A program made the translations under genes and the position numbers. A stretch of 64,000 nucleotides of DNA from the sequence record PZ445554.1. One strand, 5' to 3'. Positions 3,971 through 26,969 of this stretch are shown in pieces (within the stretch, counting starts at the first letter, position 1; every line of letters starts with the position of its first letter). The notes under the pieces were generated by a model. The model saw only the letters and a list, made by a program, of their open reading frames with translations. It made no database searches and was not told the origin of the DNA. Origin of the DNA: a phage.

Positions 3971-4107
3971 ATATCAAGAACCGTCATTGAAATGCAAAAT
4001 AAAATTATTGAAATAAATCCATCTGGAGTGCTAAAGAACCCAATCCAACATGCTCTAGTGAATAGATAAAATGCAAGAAAAAGTATCACATATCCAAGAA
4101 ATATCAT
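3967..4107 (-). CDS. putative small hydrophobic peptide (46 aa)
   Basis: Hand-translated MIFLGYVILFLAFYLFTRACWIGFF...; its TGA overlaps ATG of the GIY-YIG ORF (ATGA); below ORF-track size cut-off. Confidence 0.25.
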   Translation of the reverse strand: MIFLGYVILFLAFYLFTRACWIGFFSTPDGFISIILFCISMTVLDI

Positions 4108-4130
4108 TATATCAAACTCCGTATAAAGCT

Positions 4131-4148
4131 AAAGGGCCGAAGCCCTTT
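4131..4148 (-). terminator. rho-independent terminator after a-gt
   Basis: AAAGGGC-TTCG-GCCCTTT hairpin (minus strand) at the a-gt stop, followed by U-rich tract. Confidence 0.5.
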
Positions 4149-5349
4149 ATTTTGTAATAATGTCAAACTGTTCTTTAAAGCAGAAGCTTGAATCTTGATG
4201 CTGATACAAAAATTCATATGCTTTTTCTCGCTCACGGTCATAAAGAGCTCGGTCAGATGACAGTTCTTTAATACGTTCAAATGTTGATTCCATGTCATTT
4301 TCATCAAACCAAATGATACCGCTATCATGCGAGGTCAAAGGAGTATTATCAACACGGAATTTTAAATTTTCGCCAGTAGATTTCCAAAATACCGGAATTG
4401 TTCCACATGCACCAAGCTCGAGATGAGTATATTCTAAAGAACGTTGTAGATATTTTTTATCCAACTTACTCAACTGATAACCAAAACCGGATTTACTCAT
4501 GCGTTCAAGCATTTCGCTATTTACATAACGGTCAAGAATTTGCGTTGGCAAATTAGGAGCAATTTTAATTTGGTCTACTTGATGAAGACGATAATACTCG
4601 TATGGAATTCCTTTTTCTTTAATAGGAATGAACGCTGGAGAACGTTCCAGACCTTCCATAATAGTACTTAGTCCTGCAGGTTTAAGATGTTTTTCGTGAA
4701 AATCAAACATCTGATAAAAACCTTTCCATGTAGTCGTACGACCAATCCAACGATTGATATTCATGTTAATTTCAGAAACATCTTTCCAGTAGGTTGACCG
4801 AACCTTCGCAATATCCATAGGAGGCTGAAAGTTATATACTGTCGGCGCTTCTTCAATATCATCAAATAAAGAAACTGTTTCAGGATACCACTCTTTCATC
4901 AGAACTTTATTAAAATCACCATTATCAGAATGACTAAAAATAACATCAGCTCGACGAACAGTTTCTTCTAATCCCAAATTTCGGCGCAAAGAAAGAGAAG
5001 AGTGGTCATGTTGATAAACTACAACACGAACCGAAGGTTTAATGTTATCAATAATTTTTTTATAGTTATTAATAGTGTCTTCTTCAACTGAAGTAGCAGG
5101 AACTGAATTGATAATTAGAATATCACAATCATTTACCAGCTTAAGTGTTTTATCGTATTCTTTTGCCAATAAAACCGGAATTGAAAATGATTTATAATCA
5201 TGTGCACAGTTACGAGTAAATGATTTATCTTTAGCATAAACCAAAGTTACTTCATGACCATTTTTAATAAACCAATCACGTTGCTCAAGAGAAAATTTAG
5301 TTACACCACAACCTTCAAGACCCCGAGCCATAAAAATACATACTTTCAT
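4147..5349 (-). CDS. a-gt: DNA alpha-glucosyltransferase (hydroxymethylcytosine glucosylation)
   Basis: 400 aa; begins MKVCIFMARGLEGCGVTKFSLEQRDWFIKNGHEVTLVYAKDKSF, recognised as the T4 alpha-gt sequence; same length as T4 enzyme. Confidence 0.95.
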   Translation of the reverse strand: MKVCIFMARGLEGCGVTKFSLEQRDWFIKNGHEVTLVYAKDKSFTRNCAHDYKSFSIPVLLAKEYDKTLKLVNDCDILIINSVPATSVEEDTINNYKKIIDNIKPSVRVVVYQHDHSSLSLRRNLGLEETVRRADVIFSHSDNGDFNKVLMKEWYPETVSLFDDIEEAPTVYNFQPPMDIAKVRSTYWKDVSEINMNINRWIGRTTTWKGFYQMFDFHEKHLKPAGLSTIMEGLERSPAFIPIKEKGIPYEYYRLHQVDQIKIAPNLPTQILDRYVNSEMLERMSKSGFGYQLSKLDKKYLQRSLEYTHLELGACGTIPVFWKSTGENLKFRVDNTPLTSHDSGIIWFDENDMESTFERIKELSSDRALYDREREKAYEFLYQHQDSSFCFKEQFDIITK

Positions 5350-19855: not shown

Positions 19856-20170
19856 CTAAAAGAAACTTCTTTCACAATTTTTTCCACTGAACCACGCGCT
19901 CACTGCTTTCTTAGTCTCAGGAGCAGTGTTATCCATAAACCATTCAAAGGCAGCCTTTTTATGATTCTGGAGGGCTTCTCGGGCTTTAATCTGCTCACGG
20001 TCTATTAACACTAACATATGAGCCTTTCTTGTCACCAAGGGCTTCTTATGATTCTTGGAGTATTCCCAGTCATTTGTCCAACGCATTGTCGTTGCGAACT
20101 GATGAACCGCGTCTTTAATTTTAGTTTCGTAAATTTCACGAGCCTTTGAGTATAACATCACTACCTCCAT
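19856..20170 (-). CDS. hypothetical protein
   Basis: 104-aa ORF. Confidence 0.5.
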   Translation of the reverse strand: MEVVMLYSKAREIYETKIKDAVHQFATTMRWTNDWEYSKNHKKPLVTRKAHMLVLIDREQIKAREALQNHKKAAFEWFMDNTAPETKKAVSAWFSGKNCERSFF

Positions 20171-20259
20171 TTACCAGTTTAATTCTAATCATCTTTTTGA
20201 TGGCAGTCCATATAATCTATTTCTGAACTGCCTTTTTGTCATAGAAGGCCTCTTATGAA

Positions 20260-21240
20260 TTATTTCAGAAGAGTAACCTCAGCAATTTCTTCCCAACCGT
20301 TTTTGTCGGTCATAATAAAGTCAGCAAGATAAAGTGCAGTACGCAGTGAAACATTGCGTAAACGATTAACATTGACTTTCATCCATGATAATGCTTTATA
20401 AGTTTCTTCATCAGAAAGACCGCGCTTTTGCATCATGTCAGTTGAAAGAATAACATCTTCAACCCTGACCATAATTTCTTCATTAGTGTGAACACCCAAA
20501 TCCAAATAAACTGAGCGGGACACTAATGCTTGTAAATGTGGAGCAAGTTTAGTACCACGGTCTAATTCGCGGTCAATATCAACGTTTGTGATAAAAACAA
20601 TTGTTCCTTTAAATTCAAACTCACGGTCAATGCCTTTTTCTTCTAAGTAAGAAGATGCAGTACTCCAGCAGACTTTACGGGTCTCTCCAGTGTCCAGAGC
20701 AGCTTTCAGAAGATTAAGAATGTCCATATCAGAGAAAACATCCACATCATCAATCAAAAGGACAGAATTCTCTTCACGATTATTCCAAAGCTGCTCATAA
20801 AGACCGATACCAGAGATTTTACCATTAATGCTTTTATACTCAATGTATCCAATATCATTTGCTTTATTTAAAGCTTTATCTAAAGAATACGTTTTACCAA
20901 TACCCGCCGCACCAGAGATAATTAATGAACGAATGTTTCCGTTAATAATACCATTCGTCATCATTCCCATAACATTAAATCTTTTATTAATGCGGGTTTT
21001 CATATCTTCATATGATTCTTTAACTTCTTCAACTTTTACGCCATCATATGAAATGTCTGATTTGTAAACCCAAACACCGCGACGTTTACCGTCAATTTCA
21101 ACAAAAACTTTACCATCTCCTTGTGCATCTACCGGAGCATTATCTGGGAACCATTCGCCTAAGAGCTCAAAAGTTCCAGAGATTTCTTTACCGAAGTAGA
21201 TACCCTTATTGATAGTTACAGTTTTCATTTTATTCTCCAA
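20260..21240 (-). CDS. AAA+ family ATPase
   Basis: 326 aa; Walker A GAAGIGKT, Walker B VLLIDDVD, sensor-like TIVFITN; ~90-aa N-terminal beta-rich domain. Confidence 0.7.
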   Translation of the reverse strand: MENKMKTVTINKGIYFGKEISGTFELLGEWFPDNAPVDAQGDGKVFVEIDGKRRGVWVYKSDISYDGVKVEEVKESYEDMKTRINKRFNVMGMMTNGIINGNIRSLIISGAAGIGKTYSLDKALNKANDIGYIEYKSINGKISGIGLYEQLWNNREENSVLLIDDVDVFSDMDILNLLKAALDTGETRKVCWSTASSYLEEKGIDREFEFKGTIVFITNVDIDRELDRGTKLAPHLQALVSRSVYLDLGVHTNEEIMVRVEDVILSTDMMQKRGLSDEETYKALSWMKVNVNRLRNVSLRTALYLADFIMTDKNGWEEIAEVTLLK

Positions 21241-21292: not shown

Positions 21293-21322
21293 CGTTTTGT
21301 GAAAAATTTTTGAAATAAAAAA

Positions 21323-21340
21323 GGGAGCCCGAAGGCTCCC
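21323..21340 (-). terminator. rho-independent terminator
   Basis: GGGAGCC-TTCG-GGCTCCC hairpin immediately after the nucleotidyltransferase stop, then TTTTTT. Confidence 0.55.
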
Positions 21341-21342
21341 TA

Positions 21343-22356
21343 TCATTTATAATAACTTCGGTGGTTTTCAAGATAGACCTTCTCAAGGAAGTCATCCCAG
21401 AAACCCATGTCTACTTTTTGCTGCATACCGTTCTTAGAAGCTTCAGTAGATGCTGCTTCTACTTGATCGACCACATCTTCCAAAAACTCTTGAACTGTTT
21501 TAAATGGATGCTTACCCAACTTCACGTCGAGAATAAATGGAGCATCTTGGAGTGGATAAACCAAGTCACCGGTTTTGTAAATTTCCAATAGTTGAAGTCC
21601 ACCACGACAAGCATGGCTCAGAGCTTTCCAGTCAATACCTTCATTGGCTTCGGCCTTACGAGCACGTTCACCATATTCAGCATCTAATTTGTTCAGTGAC
21701 TGCTTAAGCTCAATAAGAGAAAGAGTTGTCTGATATTTACGACCCAACACAGTGTAGAACGTTTGTGGGCCTGTTTTCTCATGATTATAGAACACCCATT
21801 CACAGAATTCGTTTTCTGGAAGACGATGCTTAATATCTTCAACTTTAGTACGACGCTGCTTAATGGAACCGTCTTCTTGGTAATCAACCCATTGCTCAGG
21901 GATTTGATTAACTACTTTCAATACATCACGTAATGCAGCCAAACGAGAACCCTTGACACCGTATTTAGAAGCTTGCTTACGGACATATCCTAAATAGGAT
22001 TTCATGTTAGTCGTATAAAAACGAGAACGGTTGTCTTGAATAAACTTCCACACGTCAGGCAAATCAGATTTAACCACTAGCTCAGGTGGAGTGTGAAGCA
22101 TATCCAATGCTACAGTTTCACCATCTGCTGCTAATTTAAAGAAATATTTAAGACTGTATAGTTCATGGTCAATATCATCTTTAGTGTTTTTAGATGATGT
22201 GTTGTTAGTGTTTTTACTCATGTGCTCTTTGACATTTCCGATAAGAATATCGCGAGCAGGAGGAACAAAGATTTCTTTAAAATCTATATCAGATTCTGGG
22301 GTAGAAGTTCCATAAAGATGACTACCAAAATAGCTTTTCATTACTGTTTTCATCAT
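21343..22356 (-). CDS. nucleotidyltransferase-fold protein (Pol-beta superfamily)
   Basis: 337 aa; N-terminal GSHLYGTSTPESDIDF fits the GS-x(9-13)-DxD NTase motif; C-terminal ~200 aa of unknown fold. Confidence 0.65.
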   Translation of the reverse strand: MMKTVMKSYFGSHLYGTSTPESDIDFKEIFVPPARDILIGNVKEHMSKNTNNTSSKNTKDDIDHELYSLKYFFKLAADGETVALDMLHTPPELVVKSDLPDVWKFIQDNRSRFYTTNMKSYLGYVRKQASKYGVKGSRLAALRDVLKVVNQIPEQWVDYQEDGSIKQRRTKVEDIKHRLPENEFCEWVFYNHEKTGPQTFYTVLGRKYQTTLSLIELKQSLNKLDAEYGERARKAEANEGIDWKALSHACRGGLQLLEIYKTGDLVYPLQDAPFILDVKLGKHPFKTVQEFLEDVVDQVEAASTEASKNGMQQKVDMGFWDDFLEKVYLENHRSYYK

Positions 22357-22816: not shown

Positions 22817-23338
22817 TTATCCTTTCATTGAAGGTGTAACAGTTGTTAAATACTTAATCATAGCTTCAGCTTCTGATTTTGATAATGAAATTTCTCCATT
22901 GTTTTGACGAATAGAAATAAAATCCGGATGACGGTCACCACCAGCTTTTAAAACACACATATAAGTATCAACTTCGCCTTCAATATTTGAAATGATTGAA
23001 GCAGTTCCACATGAATGCGGTTTTTGATAAATCAATACAGCTTTTCTTCCGCCATTTGACTGCTCATAGGCTTTTAATACATCAAGCAAATCAGTTCTTT
23101 TATCAATAGCTAAAATGTTATTTTCATCTTCAATGTTAAATCCTTCAGATACTTCATAAAGCGTTACCCATAAATCACCAATGTCAATAACAGCATTTAC
23201 TTTTCCACGGCTTTCAAGAGTATGACAAATTTTCTTGATTTCGTCATAACTCATTTTAATAATATCATCTCCTTGACTAAGGAAGATGTCATTTTTAAAT
23301 TCAACACGAATTAAACCACTTCCACTTGAAATAAACAT
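22817..23338 (-). CDS. hypothetical protein (paralogue of next ORF)
   Basis: 173 aa; C-terminus ISLSKSEAEAMIKYLTTVTPSM matches ITLNKDEAIALKTYLDSVIPTM of 23345..23890. Confidence 0.55.
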   Translation of the reverse strand: MFISSGSGLIRVEFKNDIFLSQGDDIIKMSYDEIKKICHTLESRGKVNAVIDIGDLWVTLYEVSEGFNIEDENNILAIDKRTDLLDVLKAYEQSNGGRKAVLIYQKPHSCGTASIISNIEGEVDTYMCVLKAGGDRHPDFISIRQNNGEISLSKSEAEAMIKYLTTVTPSMKG

Positions 23339-23344
23339 ATTTCC

Positions 23345-23890
23345 TCACTTTGAAATCATAGTTGGAATAACAGAATCAAGATAAGTCTTTAACGCAATAG
23401 CTTCATCTTTGTTTAATGTAATGATATGTGATCGAAAATCGTCAATTTGACGAATAGATACTACATCTCCCTCTTCATAGCATTTTGACACATTTAAAAT
23501 AGTTTCATCATTCTGATTATAGGAGTTAGTAATAATAGCATTGCAATTTTTGAGCCATTTTAAACTATGTTTTCTTTCATTAGAATAATAAAAATATTTA
23601 ATCTTAGCTATAAAACTATCCCAATGGATAACTGATAAACACATTGACTCACTTTTAATATTAAATCCTGGGCATGAAGAATAAAAATGAATTTTGTGCT
23701 CATCATTGATGCTTACTATTTTATCAGTATAAGGATATTCAATTTGGGTTAAATGAATAATTTCACTAGGTGTAAAATACAGCATATCGTCTTCTTGCGT
23801 CAAACGATACATATTATTTACTTTTTCTATAGCCAATTCACCAAAAAGTGGACTAACTTCTAATACTAATCGTTTCGCCTCGCTCATCAT
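23345..23890 (-). CDS. hypothetical protein (paralogue of previous ORF)
   Basis: 181 aa; AGGAG RBS; shared C-terminal motif with 22817..23338. Confidence 0.55.
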   Translation of the reverse strand: MMSEAKRLVLEVSPLFGELAIEKVNNMYRLTQEDDMLYFTPSEIIHLTQIEYPYTDKIVSINDEHKIHFYSSCPGFNIKSESMCLSVIHWDSFIAKIKYFYYSNERKHSLKWLKNCNAIITNSYNQNDETILNVSKCYEEGDVVSIRQIDDFRSHIITLNKDEAIALKTYLDSVIPTMISK

Positions 23891-23994
23891 TACATACTCC
23901 TTTGAATCATATCAATAATATTGTTCACCAGATTATAGGTAAACAAAGGATAATTATATTGAATCATCACATACACAACAAACAAAATTTTCAT
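23890..23994 (-). CDS. putative 34-aa hydrophobic leader peptide
   Basis: Hand-translated MKILFVVYVMIQYNYPLFTYNLVNNIIDMIQRSM; GAGGAGAAGAGA RBS; TAATG overlap with the 181-aa ORF; just downstream of promoter. Confidence 0.3.
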   Translation of the reverse strand: MKILFVVYVMIQYNYPLFTYNLVNNIIDMIQRSM

Positions 23995-24022: not shown

Positions 24023-24052
24023 ACTATACCATAACCTTGCCAACTTGTAAAC
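24023..24052 (-). promoter_or_regulatory. T4-type early promoter
   Basis: Minus strand GTTTAC-N18-TATAGT. Confidence 0.45.
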
Positions 24053-24054
24053 CA

Positions 24055-24228
24055 TTAAATGACGTTTTCGATAAAATTCTGAAGCTTTGTATGAGCATCA
24101 ACCATGATTTTCATTTCTTCTTTGGCGAAAGCTATACCTCTTTCCCGAGAAGAACATTCATAGTCAGAAACTGCATTAGCGTATTCTTCAATTAGCTTCA
24201 TTAAAAACATCTGCTTTTCAGTTTTCAT
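24055..24228 (-). CDS. putative small protein (57 aa)
   Basis: Hand-translated MKTEKQMFLMKLIEEYANAVSDYECSS...; below ORF-track cut-off. Confidence 0.3.
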   Translation of the reverse strand: MKTEKQMFLMKLIEEYANAVSDYECSSRERGIAFAKEEMKIMVDAHTKLQNFIENVI

Positions 24229-24412
24229 TATTCCACCTAATCATTTCAAGATATTGAACTAACTTAGCTTTAGATTTATCCAAATCCTTTTTAGCTGCTT
24301 CTATACCGTCGTATGAATATCCTTCACAATGCTCAACTGCTAATTGATATGAATCTATTTCAATATCACGTGCTAATTTAATGATTTTTTCAAACTGTTC
24401 GCGTGTTAGCAT
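24218..24412 (-). CDS. hypothetical protein
   Basis: 64-aa ORF. Confidence 0.45.
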   Translation of the reverse strand: MLTREQFEKIIKLARDIEIDSYQLAVEHCEGYSYDGIEAAKKDLDKSKAKLVQYLEMIRWNNEN

Positions 24413-24414
24413 AC

Positions 24415-24654
24415 TTAAACTCTCGTATTATGATCGATAATTTCATCAAGAAACATATCTAACGCTTCTACAGCATTATTAACTTTATCTTCAAGTTCTT
24501 CAATACCTTTATTTGCAATGCCTGACGAAAACCAAGCAAAGTCACTAAGTTCCTCATCTGCTTTACGAATTAAAGCTACCAATTCCTTAATTTTATCCGC
24601 TTGTTCGATACTAATCATTATTCTACCACATATGAAAGAGAGAATATTGCACAC
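24415..24654 (-). CDS. hypothetical protein
   Basis: 79-aa ORF (start possibly internal Met). Confidence 0.45.
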
Positions 24655-24879: not shown

Positions 24880-24897
24880 AGTCTCCCGAAGGAGACT
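24880..24897 (-). terminator. rho-independent terminator
   Basis: AGTCTCC-TTCG-GGAGACT hairpin after stop at 24902, followed by TTTTTT. Confidence 0.5.
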
Positions 24898-26428: not shown

Positions 26429-26617
26429 TTAGTCCTTAGTTAAATTTTCTAAATATGTTTCTAAATCATTTTCAGCTTTATCGATAGATTTTACTAATTC
26501 GTAATATGTTTCGGCATCTCCATATTCAGAAGATATTTCAAAAGACAAATCCTTTTCTAAACTAATAATTTCACCAACTAAAAATAATATTTCGTTCTTT
26601 TGTTCGCGAGTAATCAT
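26429..26617 (-). CDS. hypothetical small acidic protein
   Basis: 62 aa; paralogue of next ORF (MITREQKNEILFL vs MSLSKEQKDKLFSL). Confidence 0.5.
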   Translation of the reverse strand: MITREQKNEILFLVGEIISLEKDLSFEISSEYGDAETYYELVKSIDKAENDLETYLENLTKD

Positions 26618-26799
26618 AAGGAATTTATATAATTAATAAGTTCTTGTTCTTTATTATCGAATTCTTTAGAAAGTTCTTCGTACTCGTTTGCACTAAAAGG
26701 ACCGCATTCATTACAAACTTTTTCCAATTCGCTATTTTTATCCATAACTTCGTGGATAAGAGAAAAGAGTTTGTCTTTTTGTTCTTTGCTTAGGCTCAT
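26614..26799 (-). CDS. hypothetical small acidic protein
   Basis: 61 aa; 4-nt overlap with previous ORF. Confidence 0.5.
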   Translation of the reverse strand: MSLSKEQKDKLFSLIHEVMDKNSELEKVCNECGPFSANEYEELSKEFDNKEQELINYINSL

Positions 26800-26969
26800 A
26801 TATTAATTTCCAGAAGTTTTAAAATAATTCGCTTTTGCTTAAATATTTCCATAGTTAAATGATCAGTATCTTTTTGACCAATTCCAATGGCAAAACCTTT
26901 ATTAGCAGCGAGTTCAATTAAATTATCAAGTTCACGTAACACTTCGTACTGTAACTCAGAACTATTCAT
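26796..26969 (-). CDS. putative small protein (57 aa)
   Basis: Hand-translated MNSSELQYEVLRELDNLIELAANKGFAIGIGQKD...; ATGA overlaps at both ends with neighbouring genes. Confidence 0.45.
   Translation of the reverse strand: MNSSELQYEVLRELDNLIELAANKGFAIGIGQKDTDHLTMEIFKQKRIILKLLEINI

Follow-up and report, generated by a model that had tools for sequence, protein, structure and literature searches.

An ancient tandem duplication within the MobD.1 (Y05I) family of T4-like phages

Two adjacent ORFs of 173 and 181 amino acids in a 64-kb stretch of phage DNA (the window, meaning the whole stretch analyzed) are the products of an old tandem duplication in the MobD.1 (T4 Y05I) family. Both copies are genuine genes that purifying selection maintains, and both lie on the minus strand, at exactly the coordinates originally predicted (Table 1). 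Overall, at a probability of about 0.55, the pair is best explained as ancient MobD.1-family duplicates that belong to an early transcription unit, may act as accessory protein-binders and sit at an exchangeable locus. The descriptive part of this explanation is as good as certain; its mechanistic part stands somewhat below even odds.

Homology and family membership of the two copies

BLASTP aligned residues 3-171 of the 173-aa protein with residues 12-178 of the 181-aa protein; 29% of the aligned positions were identical and 49% positive (E = 2e-9). The whole-protein Smith-Waterman local score was 100, compared to 31.2 ± 5.4 in 2000 shuffled controls (maximum 60, z = 12.8), and thus exceeded every shuffle. 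Tested by themselves, the N-terminal halves gave z = 6.9, with the score matched by 1 of 2000 shuffles, and the C-terminal halves gave z = 8.4, with the score matched by none of 2000; for the last 35 residues of the pair z was 9.1. The original prediction had pointed to a shared C-terminal motif, SIRQ...L.K.EA.A...YL..V.P.M. This motif is present in both proteins, but the similarity is not confined to it, as both domains are homologous by BLASTP and by comparison with shuffles. Since each half is significant separately, the C-terminal motif is the best-conserved portion of a full-length homology.

At the DNA level, similarity between the copies consists of a few in-register matches of 13-24 nt under conserved motifs, for example TCTATTCGTCAAA, which corresponds to SIRQ and is found at a spacing of 543 nt. 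Because these matches are short and in register, the duplication must be ancient; a recent copy, or gene conversion between the paralogues, is ruled out by matches of only 13-24 nt. A profile search of all six frames of the 64-kb window found no further copy of the C-domain beyond the two genes.

Both proteins matched the same two curated Pfam domains, PF24449 (T4_y05I_N; gathering score 24.9 bits, with 115.7 bits reached by the 173-aa protein and 132.2 bits by the 181-aa protein) and PF24448 (T4_y05I_C; gathering score 27 bits, with 79.9 and 75.3 bits, respectively), and the same protein cluster, PHROG 1502. The local duplication that had been proposed for the pair is thereby borne out. That the resemblance is due to chance or composition, or that the ORFs are not genes, has a negligible probability. 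Such a reading can appeal to the low sequence identity and to nothing else, and it is rejected by the z-score against shuffles, by the matches of both proteins to the same curated profiles (E<=1e-21), by omega values well below 1 for both copies and by conservation across hundreds of genomes.

The 181-aa protein is 91% identical to T4 MobD.1 and 99% identical to RB32 MobD.1. Its gene lies in the tk-to-nrdC early region between mobD.2 and nrdC.11, in the same order as in RB51. Sequence and location identify the 181-aa gene as orthologous to T4 mobD.1 (Y05I) and the 173-aa gene as RB32ORF097c. The product of the latter is 100% identical to that of a phage ECP52 gene, and at least 434 phage records contain the paralogue at >=80% identity. 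Note that the paralogy was already known: the RB51 record (GenBank/RefSeq) annotates the second copy under the gene name RB32ORF097c with the note "similar to mobD.1", and both proteins fall within curated Pfam and PHROG families.

The mobD.x gene names denote mere position beside T4 mobD (PMC2988022). A homing endonuclease, at which such a name hints, was rejected for the pair, as Pfam gave no match to a nuclease family (HNH, GIY-YIG). RefSeq calls many mobD.1 and mobD.4 orthologues 'molybdopterin-guanine dinucleotide biosynthesis protein MobD' (e.g. positions 4046-4591 and 5116-5319 of the RB51 region, L001). No molybdenum-cofactor biosynthesis family was matched in Pfam or NCBIfam, so that this product name has no support; it was apparently carried over by mistake from the gene symbol. 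The original prediction assigned no function to the pair, and in agreement with this, open-access full texts and bioRxiv contained nothing on function and only a table entry for the mobD insertion site, and the family libraries offered just Pfam's name 'putative transcription factor'. Neither protein matched a DNA-binding Pfam family, and the Pfam label is not supported; we flag both names as misleading. NCBIfam gave no matches at all, and the PADLOC defence profiles gave none for the pair and its three downstream neighbours.

Transcription unit, selection and locus variants

The gene order around the pair is tk, rI.1, rI, rI.-1, small mobD.x ORFs, the pair, a 153-aa membrane protein gene, nrdC.11 and nrdC.10, which identifies the window as DNA of a T4-like phage (Tequatrovirus). 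Compared over 2 kb, the window shares 96.6% identity with RB51 and RB68; this 2-kb stretch has matches in 505 phage records, of which almost all belong to Tequatrovirus.

Table 1. Features of the mobD.1 region of the window.
Feature	Position	Strand	Evidence and remarks
nrdC.11, RlaP-family nucleotidyltransferase	21343..22356	-	Pfam RlaP, 44 bits; annotated nrdC.11 in RB51
RB32ORF096c-type membrane protein, 153 aa	22353..22814	-	PHROG 944 'membrane protein'; directly downstream of the pair
mobD.1 tandem paralogue (RB32ORF097c type), 173 aa, two domains	22817..23338	-	ORF, BLASTP, Pfam
173-aa paralogue, C-domain, residues 102-171	22826..23035	-	Pfam T4_y05I_C
173-aa paralogue, N-domain, residues 2-95	23054..23335	-	Pfam envelope
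mobD.1 orthologue (T4 Y05I), 181 aa, two domains	23345..23890	-	ORF, Pfam, PHROG 1502
MobD.1 C-domain, residues 109-178, with the originally predicted motif	23357..23566	-	Pfam T4_y05I_C
MobD.1 N-domain, residues 8-104	23579..23869	-	Pfam envelope
mobD.2, 34-codon ORF	23890..23994	-	read from sequence; stop overlaps mobD.1 start (TAATG)
Promoter-like site, sigma-70/T4-early type (TTTACA, 17 nt, TG-TATAGT)	24023..24051	-	consensus match alone
Intrinsic-terminator-like hairpin after nrdC.11	21322..21341	-	8-pair stem, 6 G-C pairs, T run
Terminator-like hairpin after rI.-1, upstream	24880..24897	-	7-pair stem, T run

The promoter-like site just upstream of mobD.2 matches at 10/12, has an extended -10 element and was the top-scoring site in a regional scan. 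In RB51 the same 105-nt mobD.2 gene is annotated, likewise with a 1-nt overlap. Six bases separate the 181-aa gene from the 173-aa gene, and Shine-Dalgarno-like sequences precede both ATGs (AGGAG for the 181-aa and GAGGA for the 173-aa gene). The membrane protein gene that follows encodes two long hydrophobic stretches, and its stop codon overlaps the start of nrdC.11 (ATGA). The stretch from the promoter-like site to the hairpin after nrdC.11 contains two weak A+T-rich terminator-like sites (23946-23921 and 23453-23439) and no others. The promoter-like site, the abutting or overlapping stops and starts and the terminator together predict a unit of mobD.2, mobD.1, the paralogue, the membrane protein gene and nrdC.11. 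As read from consensus matches, these genes would be co-transcribed as an early unit that starts at a T4-early-type promoter and ends at a strong terminator. The two hairpins flanking the region have TTCG loops and T runs, and the opposite strand scores as well.

Other small genes of the neighbourhood are also arranged in series. Another tandem paralogue array lies at 24055-24654 on the minus strand and encodes proteins of 57, 64 and 79 aa (mobD.2a, mobD.3 and mobD.4), all belonging to Pfam DUF7438. The small ORFs after tk (26429-26969, minus strand) resemble this array, and DUF7438 is found in the corresponding ORFs of related contigs; one of these small ORFs is named 'helicase loader' in some RefSeq records. 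On the other side of the pair, nrdC.9 and nrdC.10 of RB51 are separated by a seg-like endonuclease gene (L001 245-964). The window lacks this gene at about 20170-20260, and an nrdC.9-like ORF (19856-20170, DUF7203) adjoins nrdC.10.

Pairwise Nei-Gojobori comparison across seven phages gave omega values of 0.08-0.34 for T4-type alleles of mobD.1, 0.08-0.29 for the paralogue and 0.04-0.26 for the membrane protein gene, which indicates purifying selection on all three. The MobD.1 family itself is small: among 1.84 billion representative proteins, a profile search returned 27 matches, 12 of them at E<=1e-10, and all named or context-checked members reside in T-even-type phages or in assemblies containing one. 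A viable genome-reduced T4 lacks the block from nrdC.11 to mobD.3 (PMC9825161), indicating that these genes are dispensable in the laboratory. In a phage T2 record (LC348380.1, L014 1940-3020), mobD.1 and the paralogue each carry two frameshifts, and the translated pieces are nearly identical to the intact genes. These frameshifts represent either very recent decay or sequencing errors.

The two domains also occur in other arrangements. Stand-alone genes of 70-87 aa encode the C-domain by itself. In L015, a divergent metagenomic T4-like contig, two tandem ORFs of ~100 aa resembling the N-domain are followed by a 70-aa C-domain gene (1986-2845); the match of these ORFs to the N-domain profile was weak (E = 3e-5 and 3e-4 in a 20-sequence search). 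Two further ORFs of this contig, of 185 and 182 aa and located between the membrane protein gene and RlaP, have the right size for family members and were rejected, as they did not match the family profiles. A natural hybrid of 179 aa (P0021) consists of residues 1-128 of MobD.1 fused to the C-terminal 51 residues of the paralogue; it replaces both genes in six contigs, of which the three shown come from three sequencing runs (L005 3001-3540, L006 3001-3540 and L007 1306-1845). An 88-aa 'Phage_tudor' gene is found just upstream of the hybrid.

Alleles of mobD.1 differ sharply between otherwise similar phages. Between RB27 and the window, the flanks are 93-100% identical in DNA, whereas identity falls to ~50% over about 23440-23880 (L003 3498-4040). 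The divergent part comprises the N-terminal three quarters of mobD.1, i.e. the N-domain and the first part of the C-domain, and the mosaic boundary is sharp and coincides with the conserved C-terminal motif. RB27 also has an extra gene of 61 aa just upstream of mobD.1.

Copy number varies as well. There is one copy in Dhakavirus JS98. In T4, mobD.1 is followed by mobD, which encodes an HNH homing endonuclease, where the window has the second copy and the membrane protein gene; the mobD insertion site is listed as nrdC.11/mobD.1 (PMC2988022). Since mobD was found at >=95% identity in 47 records, the two-copy arrangement of the window is the common one. A gene containing the y05I C-domain, a 096c-like membrane protein gene, zero to two further genes and RlaP follow each other in four lineages (Tequatrovirus, Dhakavirus JS98, Yersinia phage fHe-Yen9-01 and contig L015). 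The membrane protein directly follows the gene with the C-domain in all four and is absent from T4. In relatives it is located at L004 4084-4536, L008 4225-4653 and L015 2854-3345, and it has the motifs M.I...SWHY+L at the N-terminus and K..CP.I at the C-terminus. These variants suggest that the locus behaves as an exchangeable cassette, with mobD occupying in T4 the place of the second copy and the membrane protein gene.

Predicted structure and possible function

AlphaFold models were built from 27-sequence alignments. In both models the N-domain is predicted to adopt the same beta4-alpha-beta4-alpha topology (pLDDT ~90 for MobD.1 and 83-94 for the paralogue). The C-domain of ~70 residues was modelled less confidently, at a pLDDT of 49-69 in MobD.1, as beta strands followed by a terminal helix, and of 52-77 in the paralogue. 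It would contain four or five strands, and its sequence ends in the conserved motif K.EA.AL..YL..V.P.M, which sits on the terminal helix in the models. The models thus contain three predicted beta-meander-plus-helix units. Units 1 and 3 showed faint profile similarity (hhalign, P = 0.001), and the DUF7189 proteins encoded nearby are faintly similar to unit 1 of the N-domain as well as to the C-domain. The other unit pairs gave no signal, and a three-repeat module is therefore a hint.

A PDB fold search with both models gave no match at E<=0.001, with TM-scores of 0.12-0.38. The best matches (E = 0.003-0.09, TM<=0.38) were Ctf4, sliding clamps such as 6fvn_D (E = 0.024), PH-like domains of histone chaperones and a Whirly-like protein that binds guide RNA (2gje_D; probability 0.92, E = 0.09, TM 0.32/0.38). 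PC4, Whirly and PUR entries were not among the best 50 PDB fold matches. Searching PDB sequences with profiles of the full-length, N-domain and C-domain alignments returned nothing below E = 0.07. Among viral predicted structures, the significant matches were family members and uncharacterized phage proteins, and no others. All 27 aligned members have a pI of 4.5-5.8; the net charge is -6/-7 for the N-domain and neutral for the C-domain. Across the C-domain family the positions L, A, T, E, Y, L and P are invariant and a Q is nearly so, and no basic residue is conserved.

Based on the acidic pI, the absence of conserved basic residues in the C-domain and the lack of a DNA-binding Pfam match, we infer that the pair binds other proteins rather than DNA. 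Acidity is compatible with nucleic-acid binding and does not exclude it. The proteins could instead be nucleic-acid-binding regulators, in which the beta4-alpha units bind ssDNA or RNA in the manner of PC4, Whirly and PUR proteins, or hold DNA like a clamp. This is what the Pfam name would suggest, and the three modelled units, the faint similarity of units 1 and 3 and the weak fold matches to 2gje_D, 6fvn_D and histone-chaperone PH domains point the same way. However, the Pfam name is a label and not a test, no fold match reached E<=0.001, no PDB-sequence match fell below E = 0.07, and the proteins are acidic and lack conserved basic residues. We consider a role as such regulators unlikely. 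The proteins are early, small, acidic, dispensable, restricted to T-even-type phages as far as checked, and their alleles are swapped, a pattern that fits accessory protein-binders better than a DNA-binding regulator.

Under this preferred explanation, the two proteins would be dispensable accessory factors that bind other proteins. The same pattern suggests a division of labor in which the N-domain, fast-evolving and shuffled by recombination, would recognize the targets and confer specificity, and the conserved C-domain would mediate a common docking or dimerization. This function might take the form of homo- or heterodimers of the paralogues, or of contact with the membrane protein encoded next.

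The last possibility leads to a reading that overlaps with the preferred explanation and does not exclude it, namely that the pair, the membrane protein and NrdC.11 (RlaP) make up one module, in which the soluble y05I proteins would act as adaptors for, or regulate, an activity linked to the membrane or to RNA repair. The order of the C-domain gene, membrane protein and RlaP, kept in four lineages, argues for it, as do stops and starts that overlap or abut and internal terminator-like sites that number just two and are weak. However, T4 has mobD.1 and nrdC.11 and yet dispenses with the membrane protein and the second copy, synteny among T4-like genomes is generally high whatever the function, and the sequence gives no sign of an interaction. 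The conserved gene order may thus reflect inherited synteny and not functional coupling, and a dedicated module is, in our judgement, improbable. A more far-reaching proposal, which we regard as a long shot, is that the y05I C-domain is a self-associating or membrane-protein-docking adaptor joined to varied N-domains, each of which would neutralize a different host factor, e.g. a protein of the defence or stress response. T-even phages would generate the combinations of C- and N-domain by fusing, splitting and duplicating genes and by exchanging alleles, and the N-domain allele would carry the specificity. Were this the case, the block of mobD.1, paralogue, membrane protein and RlaP would serve counter-defence as a modular cassette.

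The original observation is right, but the finding is an ordinary one and of small value as a discovery. It has some use as a case study, mobD.1 being among the many uncharacterized early genes of T4. The locus bears the marks of an exchangeable cassette, with deep alleles in near-identical genomes, a natural hybrid, domain fission and replacement by a homing endonuclease gene in T4, and is therefore a reasonable candidate for host-range and anti-defence screens.

Comparison with known systems

PC4-, Whirly- and PUR-type proteins are composed of repeated units, each a four-stranded meander followed by a helix. In PUR-alpha, two units pack within one chain and the third is free, an arrangement that the pair would resemble. 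The order of strands and helices in the models of the pair fits such meander-plus-helix units. This is a resemblance in the order of secondary structure, without a significant structural or sequence match, and the pair is acidic.

Closer to hand are phage proteins that contain a single unit or domain. The DUF7189 proteins (PF23819) have ~65 aa, adjoin mobD.1 in JS98 and share the motif h.h.Q..D.h.L...E..L...L with unit 1 of the N-domain and with the C-domain. These matches (E = 1e-4 to 4e-2) are under the Pfam cut-off, and DUF7189 proteins consist of one unit. Stand-alone T4_y05I_C proteins (PHROG 7763; Yersinia phages vB_YenM_TG1 and fHe-Yen9-01, Serratia phage X20) have the same C-domain and terminal motif and, unlike the pair in the window, lack the N-domain. 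In the two contexts checked, fHe-Yen9-01 and L015, the stand-alone gene is located upstream of the membrane protein gene and RlaP.

The 173-aa gene corresponds to RB32ORF097c and RB51ORF104, with an amino acid identity of 97.7-98.3% to RB32 and RB68 and of 98% to RB51. Its position is identical to that of RB32ORF097c, and there is no difference of substance between the two. T4 MobD.1 (UniProt Y05I, 'uncharacterized 21.3 kDa protein in the nrdC-mobD intergenic region') corresponds to the 181-aa gene, which likewise lies between mobD.2 and nrdC.11. The arrangements diverge beyond this point: in T4 the mobD endonuclease gene comes after a single copy, whereas in the window the membrane protein gene comes after two.
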